Assembly (NCBI GenBank): GCA_977020255.1
Contig: CDROCS010002676.1
Coordinates: forward strand, 496,001-560,000
Length of the DNA stretch: 64,000 bases
DNA from: Obrimoposthia wandeli
Lineage: Eukaryota
Direction: 5' to 3'
Under the pieces are notes generated by a model. That model saw only the letters and a program-made list of their open reading frames with translations. It was not told the origin of the DNA and ran no database searches. This document shows, in pieces, positions 5,896 to 60,780 of this stretch. Numbering within the stretch: position 1 is the first letter of the stretch; every line of letters begins with the position of its first letter. The translations under genes and the position numbers were made by a program.

Positions 5896-5959
5896 TCGTT
5901 TCGTCTCACCTATTTAATCCGATTTTCCAATTCCTGGGACGACGTGTAAGCTTGCCGAT

Positions 5960-8225: not shown

Positions 8226-8285
8226 TACTGTGAGAGGGTTGATGTTGAATTTGGGCTCGATTGAGGACTGGTGATTGTGTGATGT

Positions 8286-8585: not shown

Positions 8586-8708
8586 TCTAAATACATGATG
8601 ATGATTAATTTCTACATGAGTTTTATATATTTCTACTATTTGTACAATCGCTTCTAGGTATTTCTACATATTTCACACACTAATTTATCTACAACCTCCT
8701 CTGACTTA

Positions 8709-13400: not shown

Positions 13401-13515
13401 TTCGCCCTGACAGATGTCCTCCTAGTGTTCCATCGTGATACTGGATCATCACTGCTGTTTTCAATGACTTTGGAATTACTACTATTATCTTTCCGACATT
13501 ATTGACAATATACAA
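10303..13515 (-). CDS. Pol part: integrase (HHCC, DDE, GPY/F), three IPT/TIG-like repeats, acidic linker, active dual-specificity phosphatase
   Basis: H-x5-GH...CKQC, MDILGPL, TDQGKNF, GLVERFN, YKGPYKV. DSP: EIIPDKLYLGN...VHCQKGISRSAT. In frame with 13537-16539 across a single TAA. Confidence 0.93.
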   Translation of the reverse strand: MYIVNNVGKIIVVIPKSLKTAVMIQYHDGTLGGHLSGRKTIARIKEKYHWDGMEDDIKQWCKQCKVCLTRKDTGTRTKVPLKPMPVPLAPMEFTAMDILGPLRESSKGNKYVIVFTDYMTRWVEAYPMQNQKAETIAQILVEEIIFRYGVPRKLLTDQGKNFTGEVIKAVSKIFGIMKLQTSPYHPQTDGLVERFNKTLCMMVQSYCSDKQEDWDKYLPSCLYAYRNSVREATGHTPFYLMYLRQNNMPMDLEWTEPTSQYLETEQYIVVMKERLQDAWTKAGLKLKFNQEGYKEQYDKKAKPHEFRVGDQVMIFYPVIEPGLSFKLHRPYKGPYKVIQTTSTNLKVINEENRNKEPMIVHANRCKLVPNKDNASRYELRSQKSKPNTNTIKLTRMVSDRNYINMMTSGSEKKPARIGMLRMKHQEEKEVIRHIAPQEILEEDEEIIVVFEKTQPTDVAKEVIVKDALTNEFLCELRVSYYDGNTLVAALYQNSNVFTTKKVLIEITLTPNIVAWQNYDSTETGLASQEEKEPAGGHILHGTPKRLKQEYHDVIMVLRNSHGKRDIMRVHLIDADTEKIICQMDTKYFDGKTIVCCIPESHRLDTDQTEVSVRLSVIEGFHSPTQPEVTNNKIIKATAELRIDSGYRKWEAKNKPQRINIIREQVTNSIQPKYHAEIVSSAPSVITSINDEIIILLKNRWPSSTEIRVNLINYAKTPISKLNVTYFDGLSIMGKLETIVMCYGAQFQVEILKDSVIPYPIHKYAGPVNPIILTPSLISVQTDIPEYPSSESGQDSEPESNDTESTESEDNMIERFEKTMEVEFAKESRKRQNIEFVKQNIQERRIKSAEETESEEDSTKKQTSETKMNISPAIRMLRGKKLAKLSNIDEQIEKRLERLKLEESELLPPMSEIIPDKLYLGNVKDATDEKKLLEQGITYVINVTMNHKSQYQTIRAMTLRVKDSMDANLLEWFVETNEILHRELRNQGKVLVHCQKGISRSATLVLAYLIKTIRMQVLEALKYLQERRSIANPNLNFWDSCQITNLCCKNKDGWTTFLRIQRKRISSKHYR

Positions 13516-13536
13516 GATTCCTTCTTTTATCGAGTA

Positions 13537-16500: not shown

Positions 16501-16539
16501 TTCTCGATATTGTTCGTCACATTCGTTCACTTCTCGCAT
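13537..16539 (-). CDS. Pol part: degenerate BIR2, IAP-type RING, aspartic protease 2, reverse transcriptase, RNase H
   Basis: LAKKGLF...CHKC-x18-H-x6-C; CAVC...FLPCGH...CRRC...CPICR; LIDTGA; FCIDFRELN, LPRIEE, MPFGL, YIDD; TDASNYAVGAVL, EKECLAI, DCLSR. Confidence 0.95.
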   Translation of the reverse strand: MREVNECDEQYREVTFEDPRLKKLAKKGLFAIKKDGKDVIKCHKCKKERIIDRYTLELPKKILHHEFCEFCIFKNKIKQKEQKTECIIEYQITRKEILAQQDTPVVSFVRRLYPKEAERIRELVELKIKTTRNGYGSIFELLRDKDDSTIETKEKEYINELEYVLEDPECAVCMVNKIEVAFLPCGHVRTCRRCANEIVSCPICRRIIDRQVRNIRFHYPNKGSGLTECNNSINTIYHMGNINGAQRPAAIIRVNNLRVKALIDTGAVASIVSEDCLTEEQKRTMAEPDEFLVSVNGDPVKVTGILPCTFIIGRNTITIPVRIMKECPEPTILGMDVLSQLKGISIDLQDPRLKDSTSNRQINQIDVIIENPIKIGKRSQFLIQGHTLTEDKGPVVFEPSRDFIEKYELPVVSTVCLIENHKIPVRLMNTTNNDILLYRGMRLGKIAQMENSTVCAMKLDKDTNDYEEIVIQSERLTTREKKQLLDLIHKFPKVIAKNPYDIGETPVIKHTIPLTEDKVVRRRPYRVPLQLQDEVKSQIEDMSKTGVIRPSFSPFSAPVVLVKKKDGKMRFCIDFRELNKITRKDVYPLPRIEEMLDKLGNSDYFTTLDLQSGYWQIEIEEEDKHKTTFSCGDGLYECEKMPFGLTEAPATFQRCMNFVLASCANTMVYIDDIIIFSKTFEEHLKNLEVVFKRLENAKLKVKPTKCEWAKERVTFLGHIVSKEGIRPDPAKIEKVKAHLAPKTVKEIQSFLGLANYYRRFVEHFSDIATPLRKLTRKDEKFIWGEEAQQAFEHLKERLINAPILAFPDINRQFILMTDASNYAVGAVLGQEDDEGREHVIAYASRGLNRAERGYSVIEKECLAIVYSCRQYRHYLLGQKVFLYTDPKPLQFLYKHRDDMSRLNRWFLKLAEFDLEIRYRTGKSNGNADCLSRLTNVDEKGNIIPEEDETNDQKGEANLLTILLKTGKIDKEIIKEQKEDEELSLIKELLVKGDLNDEMTK

Positions 16540-16686
16540 AACTTCGAATATGTCTTCAATTCGGCTATTTGTTATTACTCTGCCTACTATTAGAGCTTAT
16601 TCTCCTTCTGGAATCTCGTCACTGTAATCGAAATCGGGTGCTTTTCCCATTTGGATTTCTGGTACGTTTGAAGTTTTCAATTTCAA

Positions 16687-16880
16687 AAGAAATGGGCAAT
16701 TTGGTGCATCTCTTTTATGACGTCTCATTGGGTTTTCATTCTTTTCCCACTCTCTAAACTTTACTCTACATCATACGCATCGTACGACTTCCTCATGACC
16801 ATAACTACTTGTCGCGTTTAACATTTCTAAACCTGATCTTGCCATTTTACGTGCCATTTCTTTTGAATAGTACTGTTCTA
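16687..16880 (-). pseudogene. BIR domain 1, interrupted by an in-frame TGA (16771-16773) and missed by the ORF track
   Basis: Reading through the stop gives MARSGL...EVVRCV*CRVKFREWEKNENPMRRHKRDAPNCPFL, an exact C-x2-C-x16-H-x6-C BIR signature. Confidence 0.9.
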
Positions 16881-17610
16881 ATATATTTCGTCTCTTTTTC
16901 TCGAATCTCATGGGATCCTTTTCTGACAGATTAACATATGTTATTTTCCTCCTCGTCATCTCTTGTGGTCCGAGGTTTACGTTTTTGTAGTGAAGTATCG
17001 ACTTTACTAGCGCTTCCTGTTTTTTGTCTTGGTACGAATTTCCCAAACGGAACGTAGTGTATTTTTCTTTTTCGACTACAGGTCCTCTCAACATTTTTAT
17101 CTCTCTCACTGAACTGTCATTCTTATAACTCTTGTTGTTTGGTAGTATAATTATTCCTTCAAACATTCTTATTACGTCCATCCCAATCATGACTGGACTT
17201 CCGCAATCTGTGAATATTCTAGCATTTAACTGCAATGCTCTTCCATCGATATTCAATGAACATTTCAGTGTTCCTTCTGACACTACATCTGTACCATTTA
17301 CGTTAACAAATGTCTGTTTTCTAGGACATACTTCTCTTAATTCTTTTGATGACAAGATTTCTTTACTCAGTACTGATACTGCAGATCCAGTATCAACTTC
17401 GGCAAGATATTCTCTTCCGTTCAATGTTACTGCTACTTGTGGTGGAGCATTTGGATTCTCATTTGATATCCTAGACTTCAGAATTCTTCTGGAATTATCT
17501 TTTTTGTCTTTTTCCTCTGCTTGTGGAATCTCACTGTAGCTCACTTTAGGCCATCTTATCATTAAGATGCCTCTCTTGAACTTTTCCTTCTCTTCCTTTA
17601 GTTCCTTCAT
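16771..17610 (-). CDS. Aspartic protease 1 (additional retropepsin), linker, and N-half of BIR1
   Basis: VAVTLNGREYLAEVDTGSAVSVLS...VNG...G.L.C...IGMDV, colinear with protease 2. Confidence 0.88.
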   Translation of the reverse strand: MKELKEEKEKFKRGILMIRWPKVSYSEIPQAEEKDKKDNSRRILKSRISNENPNAPPQVAVTLNGREYLAEVDTGSAVSVLSKEILSSKELREVCPRKQTFVNVNGTDVVSEGTLKCSLNIDGRALQLNARIFTDCGSPVMIGMDVIRMFEGIIILPNNKSYKNDSSVREIKMLRGPVVEKEKYTTFRLGNSYQDKKQEALVKSILHYKNVNLGPQEMTRRKITYVNLSEKDPMRFEKKRRNILEQYYSKEMARKMARSGLEMLNATSSYGHEEVVRCV

Positions 17611-17628
17611 TTTTTTTTTTCATTTTTT

Positions 17629-19211
17629 TTATTTTTTTACAACATGTTTGTAATTCTTGTATATTTCTATTGTTCCTGTACGAAATGCGTCTTCGCAATC
17701 TCTCGGAAAAACCTTATGTGCTTTGTACGGTGTGGTAGGTGTGATTTCTGACATAAAACTTCTATGACCACAATAGAATTCGTGATAACTTGAATGGATT
17801 GAACATTCTTTCACTTCTACTTGTGCTTTATCAACATCCTGATACACAAAGTAGTTTTCAACACCTTGAACTTCTAGTTTTGACGGTTGTGACTCTGGAC
17901 AGTCTTCGCTGTCAAGCAGTGAATACTTTTGTCCCATCTTTGGTATGCTACAGTCGTATGCTATCAATCCTGATGCCTGTTGCATTCCCATGAACATTAC
18001 TAACATCATCATCATCATTGTTGTGGACATATTTGGTTGATTGTTTCTTTCTTTCGGACGGTATTGTTTATTTTCTCTTTGACGATTCTCATGACATTGT
18101 TCGTCATCGTCTTCGTTCATTTCCACAATGGTTTTAGCGTAGTCACTTAATTTTGCCCAACCTCCGTTTTCGTCGATTCGTCTCTGTAACACATTCTCGA
18201 TCAAATACATCGCTTCATTTATTCCTTGTTTGACTTCGTGAGGTTGGCTCGTTCGTTCCGTCAATTGGAAACATAGATATGTGATTGCTGTAATTAACTT
18301 TTTATTTGTAGTCTGGTTTCCACATAATCTCGCTAAAACTTCACCGTCGTAAAATCTATCTATTGATGCATGGTATACATGATTCGCAGTCATTCTCTTT
18401 ACTGCAGACATTTGTGATCTAACTGCTTTAGTCAAATTGTCTGTTATATCGGTTGTTTCATCTCTGTACATTTTGAACAACTTTGGCTTCACTTGCCTGA
18501 GAATTCCCGTAAGTATATCTTTACTACTTGGAGTTTCCGAATTCATATCACCTCTGATATCTTCATTCCGCTCCGTACTATACTGCTCTAATGACGCTGC
18601 TAACTGTCCAATGCTTAGATGTCTCTCTTTATCAGTTTGTGGTGCAGTTAGAACATTTCGTAATATACTTCCGTCTTTTCTAGGTCTTCCAGGTCCTCTT
18701 CGAAAATACTGATACTCAGTTTGATTCTCTCCTGGATCATACGGTTCACCATTATACTGTATCTCTTGACTTGGTCCCTCTTCATGGCCAATCTCTTCAC
18801 TTTGTCGCATCATCTGCTCTGCTTGTCTGTCTTTGTATGCAGCATGCCAAATTGGTGAATCTAAATCTACAATTTCGGAGATTTCATCTTCTCCTACTAG
18901 TTGGGTTACGTTTTCGTTTTGTCTCGCTTGGTTAGCTGTATCCATGACTTCATCTTGTCTGATTTGAATTATATCTGGTTCTGGTGGTACTTCGACCACT
19001 GGAGTTGTCAACTCATTTTCTAAATTCATGTCTTGTAATTCAGCTACGTACGGTTCTGGTGTGGATGTCTTGTTCCAAGCTTCAGCTACATCATTATCTC
19101 CGCTTTCGCTTGAACTGTCTAAAATTTCTATAGGCGTTTTTATCATTTCTAACGCAGAGTTTAATATCTCCGTTAATCCTTCATTATCTACTAACTCTTG
19201 ACGTCCTACAG
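17629..19211 (-). CDS. Gag-frame extension: acidic region, AT-hook, Bcl-2-like domain, hydrophobic signal, truncated chuvirus-type glycoprotein N-terminus
   Basis: RRGPGRPRK (AT-hook); LRQ..YR..TDITDNL and IDENGGW (Bcl-2 helices, BH2); MMMMMLVMFMGM..ASG-LIAYDC...SLLD...C...KEC...CG...C...TG. The ORF track's first residues (19212-19287) come from the hAT insertion. Confidence 0.7.
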
Positions 19212-20657
19212 CAGGGTTTCTCAACGGGGGCCCTGGGGCCCCCTGGGGGGCCACACAATTTGCCAGGGGGCCACACGAGCCAAACAAAAATAAAAAATTA
19301 ACACCCCTGTTTTCACTGGGTTAAACACTTCGATGGCTGCACACGTGTGCCATAAATAAATGTTTGACATGGAATAAAAACAGAGTATAGACTTCTAGAT
19401 ACATATGGACGCGACGCGTCAACTTATTTCGTGGGCGTACCAGCCCAATGAGGGCCGACGGTAAAACATCATAATATGCCTTTGCAAAAATATCATCGCG
19501 CTACAAAAGTTTGTGTGGCGGATGTGGCATATGCATAATCATCATTCTGAGTAATCTATGGACTAAAATCAGTAATCGTGTTGTGTCTCAGCGTGTGAAG
19601 AGAAGAGTGTCACACTTCATGTGTACATGCCCAAAATACGCTGCCATTGAAAAATGCTACCTACCTAACTCACAAACGTGCACTTGTGTTTGTTTTGAAT
19701 GAGTCAGTAGTTGATTTCTTTCTTCTTGTTTGTCATTCACCATATCTGAATGTACACACATAGGACCTTGTTTTTCTAATTGTCTTTTTGCTCACGTTAC
19801 CCTTGTAAACAATTTTCATTTCTGATTTTTAGTTGACAATGAGCAGCAAGAAAAAGTGCAGACAGTATAATTGTGATTATTTACGTTTCGGATTCATTGC
19901 AAGCCAAAGTAATTCTCAACTTCCTGAGTGTATTGTCTGTAACACTGTGCTCTCCAATGACTCAATGCGACCATCAAAACTTGAGGCTCATCTCCAAAAG
20001 AAGCATCCTGACATTGCAACAAAACCGCGCACATATTTTACTCAGCTTCGTGATCAGAGGACAACAGCCTCAACCCAATTGCGAAAATTTGTGGTTCCTC
20101 AGAACTTTACTTCTGGCTTAACAGCATCATATAAAATTGCATATTTAATGGCGAAACAGGGTAGAGCGCATACACTGGCAGAGCAGTTGATTAAACCTGC
20201 TATCTTGGAAGCATTTAATGTTGCCATGTATCAAATCCACAGTCAGTGCTCGCATCGATTCCTCTCTCAAATGAAATTTTCAAGAAGGTTTATCCCTTTA
20301 TTGTTAATCTACCGACGTCGGTGTTAGCTGAGAAGGGGTTCTCAGTTGTCCTTCATTCGTTCGCAAAACAGCGGATGAATCTCAAGTTGTGTGACAATGC
20401 AGAAATCCGTTTACGACTTTCTGAAAATGCTCCAGATTTCACTACACTTGTTGGCAAACGCCAAGCGCAAGGGTCACACTAACATTTTTTAAATATAGTT
20501 TTCTCATTGATTATCTTTTTGAATGTTTCCATGACAGAATAGTATAATTGAAAACAATACGTATACGATGTAATCTTTTTGTTCATAGTAGAGGGGGGCC
20601 ACAGCAATTTGCTGCAAACTAAAGGGGGCCGTGGTGAGAAAAGGTTGAGAAACCCTG
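19212..20657 (+). mobile_element. Non-autonomous hAT (Buster/Charlie-type) DNA transposon, internally deleted, 1446 bp
   Basis: TIRs CAGGGTTTCTCAAC / GTTGAGAAACCCTG and 8-bp TSD TCCTACAG (nnnTAnnn) at 19204-19211 and 20658-20665. Contains a BED-finger N-terminus (KKKCRQY..YL.FGF...PECIVC...LSNDSM.PSKL..HL..KH) joined to a Buster-type C-terminus (PTS.L.E.GFS...QAQGSH). Confidence 0.95.
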
Positions 20658-21011
20658 TCCTACAGTGATGACATCAATTTTTTCCTCTAATTCATTTCCT
20701 ATCGGATATCCACACTCGACTGGTACGTCCTCATCATCTAGTGATCTCCCTTTATAATGGAACAACATATTCATTCCATCAATTTCAAGTTTCTCGGCCA
20801 ACTTTTTTCGAATAGTTTTCATTGTCTGATACACGTTAAGTTTTTCATGTATAATCTGTCCGGAAATTAATCGAAGTGAAATATTCATCGTTCCTTCCTG
20901 GTTTGATCTCTGTACGTAGCGACCATAACCTTTCAATAATCCTCGTGGTACTTCTTTGTAACCCAAGTTATCATGACTATGTTTAACCAATTCTGCTCGC
21001 ACTTCTTCCAA
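20658..21011 (-). CDS. Ubiquitin-like domain following Gag; continues in frame into 19211 once the hAT is removed
   Basis: MNISLRLISGQIIHEKLNVYQTMKTIRKKLAEKLEIDGMNMLFHYKGRSLDDE follows the ubiquitin pattern (MQIFVKTLTGK...TI..VK.KI...L.F.GK.L.D). No C-terminal GG. The junction reads KIDVITVG|RQELV. Confidence 0.7.
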
Positions 21012-23086
21012 TCTGTGTGCACTTTAATTGTTTGCAATTTGGCCAAAACTTCTGGAGCTTCACTCGTTTCATCTAACGGTTGATTCAACGTCTCCTTAGC
21101 TTCACTAATTATCTTTTTTACATTTTCCATACTCGTAGCATTTCTTGATGCTTCTACATGATCAGTCATAGGTTGTGCGTTACACGTTTTCTCTATTGGT
21201 GTCTCATATGCTTCTAGTATTTGGTTCATTAAATCATTCATCTCTTCTCTCGAGTGTAGACTTTTTTCTTGTTTCGACAACGTAGATGAATTCGCCATCT
21301 TTGTATGTGGTGAATCTTTAATTATTCCCAACATTCGTTCAAATTTACTATCACTATCTTCAAAATCTATTTCGCGTCGAAGTTCGGTCTCGCGATTCCT
21401 ATCGCTGTCATCGTTTACATAACTAAAATTTCCTTTCGGTTTCGGCGAACTCTCGCGACTATTTGTCTTGTCAACATTATTATTATTATATCTACCGGAA
21501 TTATTATATCTCTCAGCTCCTTGCTGTCCTACGTAATTATTGTATCTCTCAGCTCCTTGCTGTCTGTCTGCATAGTTATTGTATCTACCTGGTGACTGTT
21601 GTCTATCTGTATACTGATTATTCGGTCTCCATGGCTGTGGAGTATATCCACCACCTCTATTCCATGGCGGGGGTGAATTATATCCTCTATAATTATTTCC
21701 AAAATTATTATTACCGAAATTATTATTTCCGAATCTGTTAGTTCCGAACTCTTTACTTCTCGTACAATCTCTCGAATAGTGAGCCATTTGTTTACACGTG
21801 TAACACATTATTCTCCCTCGAATATCTATCTTATTTTGTTCATCTTCGAACTGTACTCGACGACTATTCTGTCTATTATCATATCGTCCTCTAAAATCAT
21901 TTCTTCGGAAATTCGATTCAAAACCGCTTCCTCGATTATTGAATCTTCCGTCACTACTTCCTGTATTATTTCCAAATCGAGAGTCACTTCGCTCTTCTCT
22001 GTTTGCGTTGTAATTCCTATCGTCTCCTCTCCAAGGTTGGCGATTTCCTGAATTTTCTATGTTAAATCTATTCCTGGAATCATCTCTATTTCTATTCCAC
22101 GAATCATTACTATTTCTACCTCTTGAATCATCTCGATTCCTGTTCCAAGACTCACTATTATTTCTACCTCTGGAATCATCTCGATTCCTACTTCGGAAAT
22201 TATCTCTGTTTCCGTTACTGGATTCATCTACTTTTTCAAACTTATTTTGTCCATAATTTCGATTCTGAAAATTACTCGGTTCTGTTTTATTCACGAAGAC
22301 CTTTGTCTTATCGTCGTCACCTGCAGTCATTGCGTAAATTGCCAATGCTGCGTTATTTTTTATATTTTTCTCAATCTCTCTCGCCTTTCGCACGGCGTTA
22401 TCAAAATCATTTGTATCCGATACTGCCAATAATACTTTAATATCTTTTTTCAGTCCTCCTCTAAATATATCCAACAAAACCTCTGCCATTTCATTTTGGT
22501 TCCGGTCATTTTCCGCTACTTGTGCTTCTTGAGCTACAGGAATACCGTCCTGATTTCTCATTATTCTTCTTGGGTACGCTCTTGCAGCCAAGGTTCTCAA
22601 AACATACGCGTATTCATTCACGCCTTCATCATGTTTCTGCTTCCGTTCTCTCATGAGTCGCTTATTTACTTTGGCTAAGTCTCCTAATACCAATTTTCCA
22701 ATAAAAGCATTTTCCAACGTTGGCCAGTCTAAACGTTCTGCTTCTGTCAAATGTTTATACACTTCAAGTGCTAATCCGGTTAAGTGTGCCTGTACTCGGA
22801 CACATTTTTCTTTATCGTTCCATCCTTGAACATCTGCACAACTCGAATATTCTGCGAGGAAGTCACAAATACTTTCCTCATCTCCTTTAAACTTTGTGAT
22901 CTGCAATGATCCTGAAAAGTTGGGTCTCAACGTCGCATTTAGGGCTTGTGCCAACTGTTCGGCATTCATGTCACCTACATTATTTCCTGCATTATTATCT
23001 GCTTGAGCTCCTGGGTGAGCCATATTTTCAACTATATCTTCTTCAACTATTTCTTCAATATTATTCGCTTGAACTTCTTCAATCAC
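20933..23086 (-). CDS. Gag (capsid, N/R/G/Y-rich low-complexity region, CCHC knuckle)
   Basis: KFKGDEES..FL..Y...GW...LTGLA..Y...W..L...F, and CYTCKQMAHYSRDC. First in-frame ATG at 23023; the frame is open without an ATG up to ~23410. Confidence 0.9.
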   Translation of the reverse strand: MIEEVQANNIEEIVEEDIVENMAHPGAQADNNAGNNVGDMNAEQLAQALNATLRPNFSGSLQITKFKGDEESICDFLAEYSSCADVQGWNDKEKCVRVQAHLTGLALEVYKHLTEAERLDWPTLENAFIGKLVLGDLAKVNKRLMRERKQKHDEGVNEYAYVLRTLAARAYPRRIMRNQDGIPVAQEAQVAENDRNQNEMAEVLLDIFRGGLKKDIKVLLAVSDTNDFDNAVRKAREIEKNIKNNAALAIYAMTAGDDDKTKVFVNKTEPSNFQNRNYGQNKFEKVDESSNGNRDNFRSRNRDDSRGRNNSESWNRNRDDSRGRNSNDSWNRNRDDSRNRFNIENSGNRQPWRGDDRNYNANREERSDSRFGNNTGSSDGRFNNRGSGFESNFRRNDFRGRYDNRQNSRRVQFEDEQNKIDIRGRIMCYTCKQMAHYSRDCTRSKEFGTNRFGNNNFGNNNFGNNYRGYNSPPPWNRGGGYTPQPWRPNNQYTDRQQSPGRYNNYADRQQGAERYNNYVGQQGAERYNNSGRYNNNNVDKTNSRESSPKPKGNFSYVNDDSDRNRETELRREIDFEDSDSKFERMLGIIKDSPHTKMANSSTLSKQEKSLHSREEMNDLMNQILEAYETPIEKTCNAQPMTDHVEASRNATSMENVKKIISEAKETLNQPLDETSEAPEVLAKLQTIKVHTDWKKCEQNWLNIVMITWVTKKYHEDY

Positions 23087-23519
23087 TACTTGATTGGCAA
23101 TTTCAAATTCTTCTGGGTTTTGAACTTCAATATTATCAATTTCTTCTGGGTTTATTTCACCAATTACTTCAGTCAGATCAAAACTGTCGGTTGAAACTGC
23201 TGATTGATTTACGTCTCTGTCTGATACGTTTTCTTCGACTCTAGTCTGTTCTATTACTTTGTTATCTGTTTGGGGAATCTGTTCAATTCGGTTAACTTTA
23301 TTATTATTTATCTCTTCCTGGGGAATCTGACTTTGTCTTCTAGTATTATACGCGGGTCCTTTTCTATTATCCGTTGTCTTATCAATTATGTATTCGTTTA
23401 CGATATCAATTTACTTATTATTTTATCTTATTTCACAATTCTTATTTTACGATTTTTTATCTCTTTAATTAGTTCGAGGACACGTCTCCCGACTTAACCT
23501 ATTCAATTAATTACTTCGA

Positions 23520-24045
23520 GTATCAATCCACTCGATTCTCAACTTTATCAAATTTACTGAACTCGAGGAACAAATCCACTCGATTTCTCAAAACTTATCA
23601 AATTCTTAACTTCGAGGAACAAATCTACTCGATTTCTCAAAACTTATCAAATTCTTAACTTCGAGGAACAAATCTACTCGATTTCTCAAAAACTTATCAA
23701 ATTCTTAACTTCGAGGAACAAATCTACTCGATTTCTCAACACTTATCAAATTCTCAACTTCGAGGAACAAATCTACTCGATTTCTCAAAACTTATCAAAT
23801 TCTTAACTTCGAGGAACAAATCTACCCGATTTCTCAACTTTATTCAAAACTTATCTCAATTTACTTATATCTTCTTCTGAAACTTATTCTCAATTTGCTT
23901 ATATCTTCTTCTGAAACTTATTCTCAATTGTCTATATTCTTCTGCTGAAACTTATTCTCAATTTATCTGAAACTTATTCTCAATTTATCTGAACTTATTC
24001 TATTTATCTGAAACTTATTCTCAATTTATCTGAAACTTATTCTAT
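23520..24045. repeat. 5' leader tandem arrays: 49-bp unit x~6 (~23530-23830) and ~22-bp unit array (~23860-24045)
   Basis: Units CTCGATTTCTCAAAACTTATCAAATTCTTAACTTCGAGGAACAAATCTA and TCTGAAACTTATTCTCAATTTA. Confidence 0.9.
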
Positions 24046-24070
24046 GTGAATTCGCTGTGTCCGACGAGCT

Positions 24071-24089
24071 ATCCTCACTCGGGACACCA
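24071..24089 (-). promoter_or_regulatory. Primer-binding site (19 nt), best matching elongator tRNA-Met
   Basis: Sense TGGTGTCCCGAGTGAGGAT. The complement ATC-CTCAC-TCGGGAC-A-CCA parses as T-loop end, 5-bp T-stem, 7-bp acceptor strand, discriminator and CCA, and resembles metazoan elongator tRNA-Met 3' ends. tRNA identity is from memory. Confidence 0.8.
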
Positions 24090-24097
24090 CTTTAATA

Positions 24098-26192
24098 TGT
24101 TGGGGTTTCTATATGAAACTTATATAGATCCTCTTGTGTGCGGAGGGCCCCAACGTGAGTTCGAATAGAAGCAGGTCTTAAAGTTGGTCGTGGCCTACTT
24201 AGTGCTATGGTCTCCTGTCTCAACTACTTATCTGAAGGTGTTTGTTTTGACGTCTCTTAATCTGAAGGTTTTAAAACAACGTTTTCTAATGTAGGAAATC
24301 GTTTATTGTTAACACACTAGACTAATACAACAATATGTTTACGTACGTATTTTCTAAAAAGTTATAGTAAAAATTCATTAGACTTCTGTAAGTCTCTACA
24401 CCAGTGGGGATGAACCACGTATCGATTTTACGTTAAGGTTGGTTAATATCTTAGAGTCTTTTCCTTAAATCGCGAATAAGCTCAAGTTATAGATTTTATG
24501 GAGCTGGTTGCTCTACTTCAAATGGTGAATTTATAGGCAAACAATTGTTAATTAAATTTATAGGCAAAACAATTATTACTTCAATGGTAATTTTATAGGT
24601 AAACAAATATTTCTTCAATGATAATTTTATAGGCAAATAAATATTTCTTCAACGATAATTTTATAGGTAAACAAATATTTCTTCAATGATAATTTTATAG
24701 GCAAACAATATTTCTTCAATGATAATTTTATAGGCAAACAATATTTCTTCAATGATAATTTTATAGGCAAATAAATATTTCTTCAGTGATAATTTTATAG
24801 GTAAACAAATATTTCTTCAATGATAATTTTATATGCAAAACAAATAGTATGTCAATGATAATTTATATGCAAAACAAATATTATGTCAATGATAATTTTA
24901 TAGCAAAACAAATATTATGTCAATGAAAATTTTACAGGCAAACAATATTTCTTCAATGATAATTTTATAGGTAAACAAATATTATGTCAATGATAATTTT
25001 ATAGGCAAACAATATTTCTTCAATGATAATTTTATAGGCAAACAATATTTCTTCAATGATAATTTTATAGGCAAACAATATTTCTTCAATGATAATTTTA
25101 TAGGCAAATAAATATTTCTTCAGTGATAATTTTATAGGTAAACAAATATTTCTTCAATGATAATTTTATATGCAAAACAAATATTATGTCAATGATAATT
25201 TATATGCAAAACAAATATTATGTCAATGATAATTTTATAGCAAAACAAATATTATGTCAATGACAATTTTACAGGCAAACAATATTTCTTCAATGATAAT
25301 TTTATAGGTAAACAAATATTATGTCAATGATAATTTTATATGCAAAACAAATATTATGTCAATGATAATTTTATAGTCGTTTCGTCTCACCTATTTAATC
25401 CGATTTTCCAATTCCTGGGACGACGTGTAAGCTTGCCGATCCGCAACTGTAAGATGAATCCCGATTCGCAACTGTAAGATGAATCCCGATTCGCAACTGT
25501 AAGATGAATCCCGATTCGCAACTGTAAGATGAATTCGATTTGCAACTGTAAGATGAATTCGATTGTCTGTCGCTCCGCCGCCGTGAAATGAATTCGATAT
25601 TGGCTGATCTGCAATTCCAGCAATTAATATAGGCTCAAAATTAGGAGCGCTCACCAGAGTTTTTTCCGCTGACTCAGTCCTTCGTCTCGGCTAAAATTGC
25701 TCTTTTCTGTGTGTGTCCCCTGGCACGACAATGACTGCTAGTTACTGGAGAGGATTTCTGGTAGTTGATTTTTCTTCCAATTCACTGAGTTTGTTTCTCC
25801 TTCTATTACAATTCACTGAGTCGACTTATATAGTCGATCGTCGATTGGAGGCAATTTCCACCTGGCTCTTGAAAGTCAGTGAAAATAAAATTGGCTAAAA
25901 TAATATGCCTACTGTCAATCTTCTTTTCTGCTGACGTGGTTTTTCTTTTAATTAATTTTCTTTTTTGCTTTGCTTATTATTTTCTTTTGCACTTTTTTTC
26001 CTTTAAAATTAACTTATATACACAACACATCATACACGACCTTCGTGGTTTTCTAACATTTATTCTTATTTTAATTTTAATAATTTTAATTTTGATTTTA
26101 AAATTTATTAAATTCTAACCTTGCTTTCAAGGATTTTCATTTTACTATAAAATCAATTTATTATTTTAATTTTTTAATTCCTAAACCTAACA
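24098..26192 (-). repeat. 5' LTR (2095 bp)
   Basis: Direct repeat of 4582-6786, adjacent to the PBS and followed by the CATC TSD. Confidence 0.97.
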
Positions 26193-26196
26193 CATC

Positions 26197-28100
26197 TTCT
26201 AATACCTGCTTCAAAGAGATTATTCATTTTCGAATCATGTATGAATTCTACTTTGTGTGTTAAAGATTGAACTGCACTACACCAACTAAGATTTGGAATA
26301 CTATAGAAATTAAGAGCCTCAAGATTACCATCAGATCTAACTTTTTGTCTAAAAGCGTCAAATACATCACAAAGTAAGTATACTTCAAGTCTCATATATT
26401 CCATCATATAGTCTTTAATATTAGTGCAACCATAGTTTTATCCACATTGTGAGAGCTAAATTTTATTTATAATATGTAATCCTATCAGGAAATTCACTTT
26501 TTGTAGACAATCTATCTCAATACAACTTAGATTCACAAGAAATATATTTATAAGGAAAAACACATTTACTAGATATTAAATAAGTACTAAAATATCTTGA
26601 TGTTTATGGTGAACTTGGAAGATAACTAACCAATCTTTCAAGACTATTTGTTGTAAAAAGATATGAATCTAAAAATTTCAATGTACCAGCTGATAATTCT
26701 ATCTTGAGAGCCATAAATGTTTCACTATACTTGGGTATGATTGAATAACTTTTCCTTTTTAATTTTGCAAATTTTAAAATATGATGAATATCATAACCCA
26801 TTAAGTAGTAAAATAAAATTGGCAATTTCGGTCTCTTACAAGAATCTACGAGATAAATTACGTGTGTTACATGGTGCTCTCTAGAATGCACCTGAAACAT
26901 GATCATGATCACGTACTGAAACTCTATTGATTTTCCTACAAAAATGACATATAACACAATCTTTAAAAGTTAACCGATCTTCATTTGTCATTATTAGTGG
27001 TGCTTGCAAATTATTTCTCCAAAAAGGTGCAAAAATATCATTAAAAATGTCAGTTTATTTATCTATAAAAGTAGTAGCTCAATCTAAACAAAAATATGAA
27101 AAGTACTCTATTTTATCGGTAACATAATTTTTCAAAAATATTCTAACTGCAATGGGAGCATGTATATGTTTAACAGTCACATCAGGTTCTAAAATATTAT
27201 CAAAATCAGCGTAAACTACAAAAGGAGGTTGAACTGACTTTGACCAATCTGTGAATTCACAATATTTACCATCTGGCATAGTGAATAATGTTGTATCAGT
27301 ATTAAGATCACAATGGGTTATAGGTTTATCATAAGCAACCCCAGTTCAAAAACCAAAAAGACATTTCGGCCATCAATGAAGTCGTTAATTCATAAGCATG
27401 ACAATTTAATAATCTATTTAAATTACAAACACCACAATAATGATAGGTGTTATGGTCTTCAATCAAAAGTAAATTAACAATTTTATTACATTCCGTAGTT
27501 TTTTTTCCGAAAAATTATACTAACATTCGGATTTTTCAATAGATCCTTATTCGGGTATTTTGTTTTAATTTTAGAATACTTAAAAAATGTAATTGCTATT
27601 TGGTTATTACATTCAAATCTAAAAAAAATAGGATATATTTATTCGAATAATTTCATTATGCTTTAACACACTAAGGATAAAATAGATAAAATACTTATTG
27701 AAACTGTTTTTGACATTGATTACTGCCATTTTATTTAATAATTTAAGTAGTGTTGGTATATATGAAGAACCCGAAACACTATATAATTTAGTTAATTTAA
27801 ACGAAATTTTTCATATTTTATCGATTGACCAACCACTACTCAATTCCGAGTACTTTTCAATACAATTATTTAACTTGTCTGCTCTAATAACGATAAAATC
27901 AAAATCGAAAACAACAGCCTTACAACTTATATGCCCCGTTTTAACTTTGTTTTCTATTTTTACAAGTTGAGCTTGAATACCAAATGCATTAATTTTATTT
28001 AGTAAATCATTTTTCATATCATTATAAATAACAAGTTTCAACATATTCTGGTTAGTTGTAGTATCAAAAATAAGATTATCTTGAACTGCACCCTCTATTT
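26197..28100 (-). pseudogene. Polinton/Maverick pPolB, N-terminal half (degraded); continuous with 3270-4581 before the LTR insertion
   Basis: SSGWSIDKI; PPFVVYADFD; GYDIHHI...E.F...LKFLDSY...SLE.L; VYLLCDVFDAFR...YSIP.LSW...FEAGIRR, continuing CMTFV across the CATC junction. Confidence 0.85.
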
Positions 28101-28199
28101 GGATATTTTCATTGACTAATATACTTTCAAGGCCTACCTGTTGCTACAAAATAGTTATATAATTCGTTAACAAACGGTTTTCGATTGACATTATCGTTT

Positions 28200-30330: not shown

Positions 30331-31699
30331 TCAATTAATGATGGGTTTTTTAACGTGGTTTACCCTTTCCACGATAGTTTCACATCTAGGTTTTTAACAT
30401 GGTTTTCTATTTCCACGACGAATGACCATCTAGGGTTTTTTAACGTGGTTTTCCATTTCCACGGTGCAATTAGTTTGTTTTTTAAAGTGGTTGTCATCCA
30501 CTAAACAATTATTTTGTTTTTTAACGTTGTTGCCTTCCACGACTTTAATAATTTCCTGATTATCAAGAGTGAGGTTTTTGTCATCGCCATGCTCTGCTCC
30601 CAATTGTTTCTGCGTCCATCGTCAAAGTAAAACACAAAAAACGACTCCAACAATTTGTGTATTACGCTGTGTATTTTTCTTTCACAACCAACTCAACTTT
30701 TCCCTAATTTTAAAATTCATTCTTTTAAACAAAAACTCAATTTTTTGTCACTAATTATTATTATTATGTTAACACACACACAACTCTAAAACATCCGATC
30801 TCATGTCTGAACACTGGGTATGGTTTTTAAAATGATTTTTGTTGTTGTTGTCTGATTTTATATTATTATTTGCTGTTGCTGATGACAATACCCCAATTAC
30901 GGAGCCGTCTAAAGTGGGGAGCCCGTCGTCCGAAGACAGGGCCGCAGTTTCGTTATTAATTAGAAATGTATTATTATTATTTTAAAATTTTATATGAAAC
31001 ATAGAAACAGTGTCAAACTTAAAAGAGAATCAGTCAACATAAAGAGAGAATCACAGTAAGACACAACATCGTCACAATCTAAACTTCTCAGCTTATTTTC
31101 CAAACTTCCTCAAACTTCTAAAACTTAACATCTCAACATCTTTCAACTTCTTTTTTTTCAAACTTTCTCAAACTTCTAAATTTTTTTGATAATAATTAAT
31201 AGTAAGTGATCCTTTAAACTAATTTAAAAATCAAAAATTAAATTTTAAAAAAATCACTTAAATAAAATCACTGGAACAGTGGTGACCATAAATGAAAAAC
31301 AGCTTTGTTTATACTGAAATAAACAAATAAAACGTAAAATAATAAAATTAAACTACTGCAAAGTAATTTAAAAGTAATATTTAAAAATTATTTTCTTAAA
31401 TTTTGTTTTAGATTTGTAAAAAAAAATTTTAACTTTAATTTTATTTAAAATATTGATTTTTAAATAAAGCATTATACATAATTTTAATCTTAATAAATCT
31501 TTGATTCTCCAAGTGTAAATAGTTTTAAAGATTCTTTTTTAGTTTATTGTTTTATTTGATTCAATATAATCATATCATAATATATGTATATTTTTTATTT
31601 TCAATTATTTTTATAAACGTTTAAATAATTTTTTTTCATAAATAATTTGCAATCATATAAAGTAATTTATAAATTTGTTAAAAGTTTGAAATTAATATT

Positions 31700-33870
31700 T
31701 ATAGTCAATGTAAATCTAACTTGTATAAAAAACAACAAACAAAGTCGTTTAAATTCATGAAATTTATTTGAGAAACTTGATGATACAACTACAAAAGAGA
31801 TAAAGGTCTACAATTAATAGTTAATGGGTTTTGAATATGAGTTTTATTATAGAATACATAGCGTTTTCCTTGAGTTTTCACATTTCTGATGAGTGCTGAT
31901 GAATAATAAATCACTAGAGGGTCGAATACGTGTACACTATCACGTCTCAAAGAATATCCAGTGTTCACCATGTAAATTACTCGTATCATTTTGCATTACA
32001 CCCTTTCATAACCAATTGCATCTAATGAAACATTTTTTTTATATTTTTGTTATAATTAAGTATAAATTCAATCAAAGCCTTGTTAGCATAATTAACATTT
32101 CCTTCTTCAAAAACCTATTCAAGTGAATTTGCACATCTTGAAATAGTGTATGGAAAAATAAATTTGAAGGTACGAATTTATTTTCTTCCGTCAAGACAAT
32201 ATAACTAATAGTTCCATTATGTTTTAAAATTAAAATTTTTAAATATAATAGAGAATCATTCAAATCTAAATATTCTGTTTCATTCGATTAAATATTAAAC
32301 TCGATTGTATGAATATTACTATCTGTAATATTATTCACAGGGAAAAGGATCTCAAAATGTCTATTTTCTATAGCAATTTAAGGTAGTTGACGGTCAAACA
32401 AACAGTTCAGATTTTGCATATGCCATTTCTTACTCATATATGGTTCTAAGTCTTCTATGTTTCTCTATACTACCATTACATTTTTGTTCCTCTTTCATTT
32501 GAACTTGTACTTGTGGTCATTTTCAACTTTTTTTATTACATTCATTAGTTGAGTAGCAGCTTTTGTTGTTTCAGGTAACAAACCTGGTACCTCACAAACG
32601 CATTTGATTTCAATTGACTCAAAATTGGTTTATCATTTATTACTACGTTTGTAAGTGTTTTAGCACCAATTCGTCCTAAACGTGATAGTATAGGAAAAAC
32701 AATTCGCCCAAAAATTTTCATCATTAACAATATCAAGTAATACTTTCTTGTGTTTTGTAACTTTCGATTTATGTTTACTGATATTGACTTTTCCTTTAAA
32801 TATATTAAATATAATTTCAATCAATTTATCGAACACAAAAGGCGGAAATGACTTGAAAATTTGAGCTATATGTGAACTAGGTTTGAAAGCGTTTGAAAGT
32901 AAGGTAAAACGTTTTTCATTATTATTTAAACTGAAAGTACATATATTGTTTATAGTCTTATTGAGAAAATTGATTAAAACCTTCTTTTTGTTTTCCCTTT
33001 ATATCTATTACAATTAAATTCTTTGTCTTTTTAGCACTTTTTTTCTCAGTACACTTCTTTTTAATACATTTCTTTGATTTTTAGTACTCAGCTTTGTCTT
33101 CTTTTTTAATATGCGATCAGCTGTGAGTGTACTTAGACGTGATAAGCAAACATAAACTTAAAATACGTTTAACAGATTCTTGTTTTTCACCATAAAATTT
33201 TGGAGTTGTAATTATTTCTTCATCTTTAAAATAAATACCTACTGAGACAGTATCGGCTTTCAAAGTGCTATTTGTTGCATTATATATAATTTCACCACAC
33301 TTGTGTAAAATAACGGGTGTATTACTATAAAAAAAATCCCATACGCCTTGAAGTTTTATTGAATTTTCTCAATCAACAATAAATTTCGATGTGTTATTAT
33401 CAGGTTGAATGTTTGGACAATTATTAGATGGTAATACAATATAATTTTTTACTCTATCTGGTTTGCTTTTATCCATGTTGTTGTTTATATCCGTAATATT
33501 GTTTATTCTTACCTCGACATTTAGATTTAATAATTTCTTGTATCCTACATACTTTTGGTTTATCAATAAATTGTAATTTTTTCTCATATTGGACTTTCAT
33601 CCTCATTTATGATGTTATACATTACAGGGTTAGCACGAAAATTGATTTTTAATATTTAAAATACTTCATCCCTCCAATTATTCTCGAAATTTTTAATAAA
33701 AGGTGTACTTAGACTTGATATGCGAACAAAATCTCCAACTTTGTATTTGGGTTATTTTATTATTGATTTTTTATTATGATTGAACCAATCATCAAATAAA
33801 ATATATATATAGGTTTCTTACAGCCTTATAGCTTGTACAACAATACGTTACACCTGTGATTAAAATAAAT
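31700..33870 (-). mobile_element. Decayed Polinton/Maverick segment A: integrase C-terminus, minor-capsid-like ORF, basic core-like ORF, partial major capsid
   Basis: PKYKVGDFVRIS...F.KNFENNW.DEVF (Polinton IN C-terminus, ~33600-33790); VLPSNNCPNIQPDNNTSKF (minor capsid N-terminus); GRIVFPILSRLGRIGAKTL; AKSELF..DR.....NDSLLYLK (MCP start). Homologous to 58500-59250. Confidence 0.75.
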
Positions 33871-56270: not shown

Positions 56271-56840
56271 TGGTATTAATTATAATTGAAATCATATATC
56301 TTTAATTTTTTTTCTTATATTTATTTAAACAAAACTATAATTTGACATATTAACTTACTTTTTTGAAGTGCAACTGAACTACAATTTATTTGATTAAATT
56401 AATTATAAAATCTTTATTGTTATGTAATTATGTAATAGTCCTTTGCTAAGGCTAATATAAATTCTCTTATTTTGATTTTTATTAGATACCCATTGACACC
56501 TTTTATGAATATTATGAACATTACAGCTTACAATGCACAAGTTTATTTCTAAGGTAATTTAATTTTAAATTTAAACATAATTTACTTGTAGTCATCATCT
56601 ACATGTGCAATATTTGTGTTGCAAGTGTTAATATAATTTGATTATCATTGTCAAGTTCAGTCTATTGTATATTTTCTTGTAAGTTTTTATAAACAAATAT
56701 ATGTTAATTTATTTTAGAAAATGCTTGTTGATTATATAATTAATTATAGAACTGTTAATACTGTTTTAGTTAAACGAAAAGTAGAATATACTAGAATTAG
56801 TGTTTTATAATAGAAATATAAACACGAGAGCGTAAGATTA

Positions 56841-57615
56841 ATGCCTTTATTATTAAATTATAAAGGGAATCAATCTAAATGTGATTTAACTGAAGACGAA
56901 TTTTATAAACATGATGATGATTCAACTGAAAACGTAAATTGTATATACTGTCAATGTACATTATTTGAATGGGTATGGTATCTTAAACCAATGAAGCAAC
57001 TTATGAAAGATTTTCCTACATATCCATTCCTTTTGAAATTAAATGTTGCAAATGTATCAATAATTGAAACAAGTAACAAGAAAATTAATTTTAATACATT
57101 AACCATGATTGGAAAGTATATGTATCAGATATTTATGTAAATTACCTGATATATGCTATTCAAATAGTTTAGGAATCTATAATGATATAGTTATTGAGAA
57201 AATTGAATCAGATTGTATTATAAAATATCCTTTAACTATAGAGAAATTCGATATGTTGATGGATACAAATCAAATCAAATATTTGAAAATGTTTTTCACA
57301 AAAGACAGAAGAAAATCTGTTTTAAAATATACAATAATGCGATATGGAGAATACAAATCACTATTTGAAATTATTTGTGATTTATCTAATTTAGAAATAA
57401 ACCCTGAAAAACAATATATAAATATACTTTCGTACACGTTAAAAGAACCTGAATGTGTAGTATGTTTAAATAATCATATTGAAGTAGTATTTCTACCATG
57501 CGGACATGTAAATACATGTATCGCATGTTCCACAAGGTTACATTCATGTCCAGAATGTCGATATATAATTGAAAGGAGAGTAAGAAATGTAAAATTTCAT
57601 GGTATAAACAATTGA
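56841..57615 (+). pseudogene. IAP-like gene (degenerate BIR plus RING) in Polinton-like segment B; frameshifted
   Basis: ENVNCIYCQCTLFEW...P...FPTYPFLLKL (BIR with H/C ligands lost), then YKSLFEII.D...EKQYIN.LSYTLKEPECVVCLNNHIEVVFLPCGHVNTCIAC...CPECR. Confidence 0.85.
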
Positions 57616-58149
57616 AATTTGGTGATTTATACAAAAATAAATAAAAACGATTAATTAATTGATGATATTGTTGATGAAATTATAAACTGAACAATAAATG
57701 GAGTTCAGTATTTTTCTAGTTTTAATGGACTTTCTAGTGATAATATAAAGGAAATTGATGGCACTCATGTCTATAAAGATATCAAATGGGAAAAGGATTT
57801 TGAAAATTTCATTCAAATTATTCGTTCAAACATGATGTATATAACTTTTTCTGTATCAACTTTTAATTCGTTTTTGCTGTATATATTAATAAAAAAGCCT
57901 ATAAACAATATTATTATTATTATCTTATTATTATTATTATGAAACTTAAAAAATTTTGAAAATGATCGATTAGGAAAGAAAAATATCAATTCAAAAATCG
58001 TGTTTGACAACGATTTCAATAGTACAGATTTGAATGCATTAGTTAAATAAAAAATGTTGTCATATTTTTAGCATGTTTTATATTGAAAAAGATAAATTCA
58101 TCAAATTCAAGTTAAAATCTCATATTTCAAGTATAATGTTTAATACTCG

Positions 58150-58800
58150 TATGGAATTTGTACTGGTTCTTAAAAAACAGAATTTACAGGCGAAGGTAAA
58201 GGTATACCTCAATTAATATGTGAGTTTGATCACATGTACATGGATACTAATTTGATAGAGTCTATAAATGTTGATGGTGTGAAAATACCATTGTTAAAAT
58301 CAATTATGTTGGATAAAAACAAAAATATGGTGATACCGCAAATATTACACTTATTAGACCAATGTATCTTCCTATAATATCAGCATCTATTACCAATATT
58401 GAAGTAAACATACCTAATGATAGTGGAATACTGATAAACTTTGCACATAACACAAAAACTAGTTTAACACTACATTTCATAAAGGTTATGTATAAACAAA
58501 ATTAAACAATGTTAATCGTTATTAATATTGTCTCTATTTGATGTGTATAGCACATCCCAAACGGGTGGCGAACTACACTACTTTCTTGGAAAACAATATG
58601 GTTCAGGTTGGATGTAAATTTTGGGGCGAATTGCGTTTCCTATACTATCACGTTTAGGACGAATTGGTGCAAAAACACTTACAAATGTAGTAATGAACGA
58701 TAAACCAACTTTGAGTCAACTAAAAACAAATGCCTGAAGCAACAAAAGCTGCTACTCAACTAATGACTGCAATAAAGAAAAATCGAAAACTACCATCAAA
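58150..58800 (+). pseudogene. Polinton minor-capsid-like remnant and basic core-like ORF remnant
   Basis: MYMDTNLIES...LLK.I...NIEVNI.NDSG.LINF...TSLTLHF (penton-like C-terminus); GRIAFPILSRLGRIGAKTLTNVV, matching 32545-32820. Confidence 0.6.
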
Positions 58801-58885
58801 AATTCCTGTCGAAATAAAATAAGTACAAATAGGTAGTGGTAGTATAAACAAACGTAGAAAAATAGGAACCATATTTGAGTAAGAA

Positions 58886-60122
58886 ATGGCTTGTGCAAAA
58901 TCTAAACTGTGTTTGTTTGATCGTCCACTACCTCAAATTTCTATAGAACATAGATGTTTTTAGAATATTTACCTTGTTAATAATATTACCGGTAGTAATA
59001 TTAATACAATTGATTTTAATATCCAATAGAATGAAACATAATATTTATATATGAATGATTCTCTATTATATTTAAAAATTAAAGTTTAAAAACATAATGA
59101 AACTAACAGTTATATTGATATGACTGAAGAAGATAAATTCGTAACATCAAATTTCTTTTTCCGTACATTTTTTAAAGATGTACAAATTCACTAGAATAAT
59201 ACTCGTATTGAAGGAGGAAATGGTAGTTATGCTCACAAGGCTTTGATTGAATGTATGCTTAATTATAGCAAAGATACGAAAAGTGTTTCATTAGATGCAA
59301 TTGGTTATGATAGTAAAATTGATAGAAAATGTACAAAAAGGGAGGATTGAAAAATCTTATGAATTGGAGTTGTGCAGTTCAATTCGATCAAACTTTCTTG
59401 AACAACCCAAATATCTGCTTCCCGGTATGAATTTCGGTATAAAATTGATTATTTTCAAAGCAAACTTGTTACTATAAACAAGTACAACTCATTGTAGAAT
59501 AAAATTTCTAGATGCTTAAATGAAAGTTAGGCGTATAAGAGTTGAACCATCAGTATTGATGGCTCATTATGTTGGTTTGGCAACTCAAAATGCGGTTTAT
59601 CCATACAGACTGGGAAACATTGTACGTTATTCACTACCTAAATGCGCTACAACATTTTGTAAATCACCTATCTTTGATGATGAGCAATTACCTAAAATTT
59701 GGTTTGGTTACATTTCAACATAATCTTAAAATGGATGGGTATAGTGAAACAGACTCTACAGAATTTGATCATTGTAATGTCGGTTCAATTTCCCTTAGTA
59801 GAAACATTGATTTTGTTGAAACATACACTACAAACTTTGAAAAAAATGAGTTCATGTTTGCGTATATTCAATCACTGGTTAGAAACAAGGGATTATTGGA
59901 TAAGAATATAAACATCTAAATATTTTAAGGAACATTATCCATTTTTACATTCATATTGGCCCTGACTTTGATATAAATCAACATCAATTACCGAAACAAG
60001 GTAATCTAAGACTTGACGTAAAGTTTCTCAAAGGATGGGAACATCTGTCAAACATTATAATTTACGGTGTTTTCGATACTGAAATTCAAGTAACTAAAGG
60101 CAAACGTCCAATTGTTGGATGA
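58886..60122 (+). pseudogene. Polinton/adintovirus major capsid protein (double jelly-roll), degraded
   Basis: MACAKSKLCLFDRPLPQ.SIE; NDSLLYLK; VRRIRVEPSVLMAH..GL...NAVYP; FDHCNVGSISL...FAYIQSL...GL; PKQGNLRLDVKF; IYGVFDTEIQV. Typical Polinton MCP motifs, with many stops and frameshifts. Confidence 0.85.
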
Positions 60123-60129
60123 AGTAAGT

Positions 60130-60780
60130 GTTGAGTATTTATTGATCTTAATTAATGTAGTTCTAAGCAAATAAATTAATAAATATTGCTTTTGTTGTAA
60201 AATGTAGTGTAATTGAAGCTGGTAAAACATAACATAGACTAAAAACAATTAATGTAGAACCTGGTTCATATGAAATTAAAACATTGAAACTAAACGCCTA
60301 AAATAGGACAGAGTATAGGAGTTGTTGGCGGCAACACCCCTAGAGCCTTCGACTCGTAAACCCTATAAATAAATTAGAAATTAGAGCAAATACGATAAAT
60401 TCAAAATGTATTTTAATACTAAATAAATGTGAAATTATATTTACAAAAGAATCTTTATTTCATAAAATTCTTGAATTAAGACATGGTAAAGGTATTAAAA
60501 CAAGAACTAAAACTTCTGAAGAAATAAGTCAAAAATCAAATATTTCAACTATAAATTTTACGTGATATTATTGAAGGATATTCTAAAAATGGTCAACAAG
60601 CTAACATTTTATATTATTTTCCTTTAAATACTGTTCCATTTGGATATAAATTAATTGAAATACAATCAACACCAACATCTTTACCTGTTTCAAGAAAAGT
60701 GATTAATAAAATTAAAATTAAAATCTTTGATGAAAATGAAAAATTAATTCCTTTTTAATGGATAAATAAAAAGTAATTTT
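60130..60780 (+). pseudogene. Second minor-capsid (penton)-like remnant
   Basis: INVEPGSYEIK...DIIEGYSKNGQQANILYYF....PFGYKLIE.....LPV....I.KIKIKIFDEN.KLIPF. Confidence 0.6.

Follow-up and report, generated by a model that had tools for sequence, protein, structure and literature searches.

One IAP gene lineage of host origin is common to a giant LTR retrotransposon and to Polintons in the Obrimoposthia wandeli genome

Sequence comparison confirms that one lineage of IAP genes is common to a giant LTR retrotransposon and to Polintons in the genome of Obrimoposthia wandeli. The LTR and Polinton IAPs share a host origin, which we regard as solid, and their BIR, UBA and RING domains are under purifying selection in both element classes. 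In the explanation that we favour, with a probability of about one half, a spliced host IAP would have been captured a single time, as processed mRNA, by the giant LTR element and then relayed from the LTR element to a Polinton. Both kinds of element occur in the window, that is, the whole stretch of 64,000 nucleotides analysed here (G000:C2676:496001-560000); the own genome searched comprises 1.35 Gb.

The sequence-only reading of this DNA had placed an IAP gene of a Polinton-like segment at 56,841 to 57,615. The gene is present, but its start lies further upstream, near 56,721 (Table 1). Stops near 56.81 kb and frameshifting indels near 57.11-57.14 kb disrupt it; Pfam detects a weak BIR (18 bits) plus zf-C3HC4_3, and the protein identity to the 149 other scored copies is 83-86%. 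The gene opens a Polinton remnant of 3.6 kb (56,624-60,188) that has no TIRs; set against the copy in G000:C694, a deletion at 57,950 has removed about 2.9 kb from it. The remnant reads IAP, first codons of an ATPase, the deletion, a penton-like end, a core-protein-like gene and the major capsid protein. Capsid matches support the last of these, and the penton-like and core-protein-like labels are putative. An uninterrupted ubiquitin-conjugating enzyme frame of 239 codons (61500-62219, minus strand, Pfam UQ_con 94.7 bits) lies 1.3 kb off the remnant.

The second IAP of the window belongs to a gypsy LTR element of 21.6 kb with LTRs of about 2.2 kb each. The element consists of gag, a ubiquitin-like piece, an env-like fusion domain, a protease, the IAP, protease-RT-RNase H, an integrase, two DSP domains and three small RING frames, and Pfam matches of its frames include a zinc knuckle, a viral fusion glycoprotein domain, two proteases, RING, RT, RNase H and integrase. 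These matches and their order give the gypsy arrangement protease-RT-RNase H-integrase together with gag and an in-frame env. The BIR1 region of the window IAP module is interrupted by stops; BIR1 to RING forms a single frame in all five LTR element copies inspected, and open frames reach 5,487 codons in other copies. The LTR IAP region has 150 scored copies in the own genome, 98-100% identical, of 21,898 first-look candidates. Repeat arrays with 33-34-bp and 25-bp units lie inside each LTR (window 5000-5900 and 24516-25376), and their copy number differs between the otherwise 99% identical LTRs. On the opposite (plus) strand, the element contains a zinc-finger fragment of a DNA transposon (19833-20327, Pfam zf-C2H2_12).

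Giant gypsy elements of planarians named Burro (Burro1/GYPSM1, Schmidtea mediterranea) are described as carrying BIR (PMC6431247), and the Burro1 B-IAP reportedly protects planarian stem cells and aids regeneration, as Lee et al. 2026 (Dev Cell) are summarised in PMC13465017. The window element resembles Burro in its giant gag-env-pol polyprotein with BIR and RING, in the env-like region between gag and pol, and in the frames of more than 5,000 codons in other copies; from this agreement the host would be a planarian. It differs in being shorter than Burro, which exceeds 30 kb, and in its DSP and extra RING cargo. BCL2, MATH, ankyrin and dUTPase domains were not among the Pfam matches of the window frames scanned. 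Because of its length and the missing domains we call the element Burro-like and not Burro1, with which it was compared by description. The available portions of the two Burro sources (PMC6431247, PMC13465017) contain no mention of a Polinton relative of the IAP.

The LTR element splits the polymerase gene of a decayed Polinton, as expected from the earlier claim that the giant element is physically inserted in one. The integrase, capsid and protease pieces further along are probably of the same Polinton copy as this polymerase. The interrupted Polinton had also been assigned to the family of the 56.7-57.6 kb segment, and the capsid region at 32.0-32.7 kb is indeed 80% identical to that at 58.6-59.3 kb; the same-family reading is reasonable, provided that one copy comprises both the piece at 31.7-33.8 kb and those of the polymerase. 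The nesting itself was considered as the transfer event and rejected. The two LTRs are 99.0-99.4% identical across their unique parts whereas the two IAPs are 35-37% identical, so the split of the IAPs is ancient, the nesting is far younger, and it provides no evidence for exchange. Between the Polinton pieces lie decayed retrotransposon frames (28229-30269, minus strand), which have no Pfam match and which we take to be BEL/Pao-like.

Table 1. Features of the window that bear on the two IAP genes (positions of the 64,000-nucleotide stretch)
Feature	Position	Strand	Basis or remark
Decayed Polinton DNA polymerase B gene, downstream part	3263..4577	-	Interrupted by LTR element
Giant Burro-like gypsy LTR element	4582..26192	-	Pfam; LTRs 4,582-6,786 and 24,098-26,192; 4-bp target duplication
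DSP phosphatase domain of LTR polyprotein	10417..10911	-	Closest tested relative of family B DSP-like gene
IAP module in LTR polyprotein (BIR1, degenerate BIR2, UBA, RING), between two protease domains	15886..17016	-	Pfam, tblastn, copies
Decayed Polinton polymerase gene, upstream part	26197..28143	-	DNA 66% identical to the polymerase regions of family A
Decayed Polinton integrase, capsid and protease pieces	31686..33821	-	80-84% identity to G000:C694
Polinton remnant without TIRs	56624..60188	+	87% identity to G000:C694, in two blocks 2.86 kb apart there
Polinton family A IAP gene (N-terminal extension, BIR, UBA, RING), broken	56721..57615	+	Pfam and genome copies

Across the genome, the family A IAP has 150 scored matches (83-99% identity) of 17,015 candidates, and its commonest open frame is 301 codons (12 of the first 30 rows). 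At 48 family A loci besides that of the window, an ATPase adjoins the IAP at 47, a TBP-like gene at 44, both at 43, and no locus has neither. At 30 LTR IAP loci, a protease adjoins the IAP at every one, always in the order IAP then protease, and a Polinton gene at none. The reading of the window IAP as a stray or decayed LTR fragment was rejected on these neighbours (Polinton genes at 48/48 family A loci versus 0/30 LTR loci).

It had been proposed to look for the IAP within Polinton TIRs in other copies, and exact termini with matching 6-mers do enclose it in three of four regions. Exact termini and 6-bp target duplications are found in C1416 (family A) and in C399 and C760 (family B), and C694 has one end only; the TIRs of these Polintons start with AG. 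Wider stretches around the family A IAP carry the full Polinton gene set. In a family A carrier, the rve integrase (47 bits) and the A32-type ATPase (Pox_A32, 29.5 bits) score above the Pfam cut-off, and DJR-like, Capsid_N and Peptidase_C5 matches fall below it (E 0.002-0.008), in the expected order. The family B polymerase frame matches a PHROG DNA polymerase (E 8e-8) and shares 48% identity with the frame of family A; the latter alone has no Pfam or named PHROG match, and a PDB search with the family B polymerase gave no match. The DNA polymerase B motifs in the Polinton polymerase were read by eye.

Family B is a second Polinton family with a related IAP of 341 codons and a degenerate second BIR. 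Its gene order differs from that of family A and runs IAP, TBP-like, DSP-like, ATPase. Pfam scores of open-frame copies of families A and B are 50.8 and 53.2 bits for BIR and 42.4 and 44.6 bits for RING, respectively. Most Polintons in this genome, with or without an IAP, have the short TBP-like gene (L053:690-1019 in G000:C1416 and 14 further matches in nine regions), in which Pfam TBP (49.9 bits) finds one repeat. On the ATPase tree, families A and B are split by IAP-less lineages (C694:5443 and C463:23301, region coordinates), and the IAP sits on different sides of the TBP-like gene in the two families; the cassette was thus lost repeatedly or moved between Polintons. Within family A, the subfamilies of G000:C1416 and C694 are 83% alike over ATPase-IAP, 71% over the integrase and 65% over the capsid genes, and this uneven identity suggests that the IAP-bearing arm may have been exchanged between them. 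Polintons of different families adjoin or nest in most of the regions fetched (G000:C1416, C1198, C480, C694, C1148, C463), and the IAP arm is duplicated in inverted orientation in some copies (C1148, C777).

The likeness of the two mobile IAPs extends well past general IAP features. The LTR IAP frame matches the window with 39% identity over 172 amino acids in tblastn (E 2e-30). All seven peptide strings checked among those quoted by the sequence-only reading occur in the window translations, and the reported match of the BIR exits was seen by tblastx. Similarity beyond the RING consensus, also claimed there, holds up when the BIR-to-RING linker alone is compared with 154 IAP-like proteins and three element proteins, as the linker separates the lineage from generic IAPs. 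With the Polinton A linker as query, Polinton B reaches 66.9 bits, the LTR IAP 34.9, the protein P0006 13.5 and all others 9.6 at most; with the LTR linker, four lineage members reach 35-47 bits and nothing else exceeds 14.7. Part of this linker is a UBA domain, also found in cIAP1. The first quoted block does align between LTR and Polinton but is a UBA helix and not private by itself, because cIAP1 has this helix too, as a weak aligned stretch. The degenerate BIR2 is retained more fully in the LTR IAP than in Polinton family A or B.

Three standalone proteins also belong to the lineage (P0006, P0154 and P0121). A representative protein search returned three lineage members among its best 150; other protein searches gave 4 matches and 19 matches, the latter including one lineage member, and almost all were generic IAPs. 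Longer proteins yielded no lineage members, a weak negative, and an Atlas search returned generic IAP clusters only. None of 83 viral or metagenomic loci exceeded 31 bits on the lineage linker profile, and neither P0154 nor the LTR DSP found a match in scans of viral contigs.

The earlier reading had allowed for one host or viral source, and spliced paralogues show the host to be the source, given two intron-containing genes of the lineage in the same genome. Host gene G000:C2454 was found through one of 17 odd RING matches fetched, a spliced exon with the C-terminal signature of the lineage. It has at least five alignable exons with GT-AG introns over about 15 kb. Its upstream exons encode UBA, degenerate-BIR2, BIR and N-terminal parts, and two middle exons of the model are uncertain; it is single copy among the candidates scored with single-exon queries. 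Such queries also revealed paralogue 2 on G000:C369, with two recovered exons whose ends are intron positions matching those of G000:C2454. C369 is nearer to the element copies in an alignment of 38% of columns, the recovered exons excluding the BIR core, UBA and RING; P0006 is the standalone protein nearest to it (47% identity). The element IAPs are continuous frames (301 and 341 amino acids in Polintons, plus the LTR module) and the host genes are spliced, so the element copies would have passed through spliced RNA. Further paralogues may be hidden, as whole-protein genome searches are swamped by element copies, and the host genes surfaced through odd RING matches and single-exon queries.

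In phylogenetic trees, the lineage forms a single clade, with support of 100/98 in a 40-row tree (chosen from 90 rows passing the domain filter, of 207) and 100/100 in a 23-row tree with the first host gene, from which the long branches P0121 and P0154 were left out; the outgroup of generic IAPs, top matches to the Polinton protein cut with lineage-built profiles, may inflate this support. The IAPs of the two Polinton families group as sisters, with support from 94/92 to 98/96. A phylogeny of this kind had been proposed as a check: it recovers the single clade, but the grouping of LTR with Polinton IAPs is weak, and separate nesting with host paralogues is not rejected (p-AU 0.07-0.25). With the two long-branch rows left out, LTR and Polinton IAPs stand apart from host-like rows at 88/82 and 73/82, neither starred; P0121, when included, falls within the mobile-element group. 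The p-AU of Polintons with host gene 1 is 0.082 and 0.253, that of the LTR IAP with P0006 is 0.101, and the LTR IAP with host gene 1 is rejected on the full-length alignment (0.016) but not in the 23-row test (0.098). Gene exchange between the elements, as the sequence-only reading put it, is therefore favoured (73/82 to 88/82) but not demonstrated, since host-sister trees are not rejected, and we consider element-to-element transfer of the IAP a little better than even on this phylogenetic signal.

The chief competitor to a single capture with relay is two captures, at separate times, of processed copies of one host paralogue (C369 type), one by the LTR element and one by the Polinton; both would gain from blocking cell death, and neither would have passed the gene to the other. 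We hold this to be possible, if less probable. Paralogue 2 is no further from either mobile IAP than the two are from one another: over its two exons, it is 27-36% identical to the mobile copies, which are 23-28% identical between LTR and Polinton. Site patterns over these exons (8 v 12 v 18; 13 v 15 v 14; 11 v 9 v 18) do not favour LTR with Polinton. Alternative topologies are likewise not rejected: p-AU is 0.159 whether paralogue 2 is placed beside the Polintons or beside the LTR IAP, and 0.143 and 0.070, respectively, in a second test. P0006 already has the short UBA-RING spacer of the mobile copies, and unrelated adintoviruses bear IAP homologues according to the portions available of PMC8502044, so repeated capture occurs. 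Against two captures, every best tree without the two longest branches joins LTR and Polinton IAPs (75-85% of bootstrap trees), and a DNA element would need a separate retrocopy to shed the introns. A further point may come from a second cargo. With the DSP-like gene of Polinton family B as query, the first DSP of the LTR element reaches 62.8 bits and the best of 31 PDB matches 38.1; the LTR DSP itself scores 81.8 bits on human DUSP10. The catalytic motif of the family B gene is presumably degenerate. The DSP may thus be common to the LTR element and family B, a lead from a panel of phosphatases without flatworm host members, in which shared capture and shared host origin look alike. We count it for a single capture because it would demand a second coincidence under separate captures.

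A single capture in the opposite direction, by a Polinton from a genomic retrocopy and from there to the LTR element, for example through a read-through transcript of an LTR element inserted in a Polinton, appears quite improbable. LTR elements do insert into these Polintons, the Polinton IAP branches are shorter and nearer to the host genes, and the presence of the IAP in two families separated by IAP-less lineages on the ATPase tree suggests old presence or mobility. However, trees that nest the LTR IAP, sampled from one LTR family, among the sampled Polinton IAPs are rejected (p-AU 0.044, 0.023 and twice 0.022), and the fuller BIR2 of the LTR IAP also argues against this direction. Least probable is an outside large DNA virus as the source for both, or generic IAP similarity only. 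The unplaced lineage proteins P0006, P0154 and P0121 count in its favour, but the spliced paralogues in the same genome and the 0/83 viral or metagenomic loci passing 31 bits speak against one, and trees placing the LTR IAP with either of two tested generic IAP sets are rejected (p-AU 3e-8 and 7e-14).

Under the single-capture relay that we prefer, a host IAP of a flatworm-type lineage (N-terminal extension, BIR1, degenerate BIR2, UBA, RING) would have been captured once as processed mRNA, most simply by the giant LTR element, whose own reverse transcriptase can copy mRNA. It would later have been handed to an ancestral Polinton and have spread into at least two Polinton families. Its job is likely the same in both elements, with a RING ubiquitin ligase and a BIR docking domain that would keep the cell alive while the element multiplies, in line with what is reported of the Burro1 B-IAP in planarian stem cells. 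Of this explanation, we infer the single capture, the LTR-to-Polinton direction and the anti-death function.

The selection on the IAP was measured as dN/dS in 17 pairs in all, from open-frame copies only. The values are 0.28-0.36 between family A subfamilies (5/5 pairs), 0.24-0.30 for LTR IAP pairs (3/3) and 0.35-0.62 for family B pairs; among the closest copies they are 0.59-0.88, as expected for post-insertion decay. Certain acidic residues of the BIR help to bind the N-termini of caspases and antagonists. Those present in cIAP1 BIR3 (PDB 3t6p) are missing at the aligned place from the Polinton A BIR, so canonical caspase binding is doubtful, and the RING activity of the Polinton A IAP may be more important than any direct contact with caspases. 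We regard as a speculative, rather unlikely extension that an anti-apoptotic module useful to stem cells was relayed, with a phosphatase gene, from host mRNA through a retrotransposon to a capsid-encoding DNA transposon, and that its spread to hundreds of open-frame Polinton copies makes it a second, unrecognised source of IAP activity.

The presence of an IAP in Burro and in adintoviruses is already in print, each separately. Adintoviruses (Polintons/Mavericks) have IAP homologues among their anti-apoptotic accessory genes, and flatworm names were not found in the available parts of the text and supplement of that report (PMC8502044). The Polintons described here resemble adintoviruses in their TIRs starting with AG, 6-bp target duplication, integrase, A32-type ATPase, adenain-like protease, jelly-roll capsid, polymerase B and IAP. 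Unlike in the adintoviruses described, the IAP here goes back to a spliced host paralogue and is also found in a retrotransposon, and the Polintons add a TBP-like gene. Nematode Mavericks acquire host gene families as cargo (Widen et al., as given in PMC10680173); there cargo moves between species, whereas here the same cargo lineage is found in two element classes of one genome. An expansion of Mavericks in Dugesia has been reported, with no IAP mentioned in the part of the preprint available (bioRxiv 10.64898/2025.12.11.693146). The literature search found no report of a common IAP origin; this novelty is provisional, as Lee et al. 2026, Grohme et al. 2018 and the bioRxiv supplements may treat the origin of the IAP. 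Should the same host gene lineage be present in Polintons at high copy number and be kept by purifying selection, host-element mutualism may span two unrelated element classes, and knock-down studies would gain a second target. The system also offers a testable case of how a DNA element gains intron-free host genes, by relay via an LTR element or by separate capture.

The lineage has BIR, UBA and a C-terminal RING in the order known from cIAP1 (PDB 3t6p) and metazoan RING IAPs, and it differs from cIAP1 in its own N-terminal extension, degenerate BIR2 and linker. A survey reports that RING-IAPs were lost in flatworms, and the tables seen of it are without Schmidtea, Dugesia and Macrostomum (PMC13159474). 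In contrast to the parasitic species of that survey (PMC13159474), this genome has a spliced, RING-bearing host IAP gene. A RING-bearing host IAP is thus present in a probable free-living flatworm, against the reported loss in parasitic species. Two host BIR genes of this genome fall outside the lineage, L101 (G000:C694:435434-435643) and L102 (G000:C6834:49196-49366), which we take to be survivin-like and BRUCE-like, respectively.
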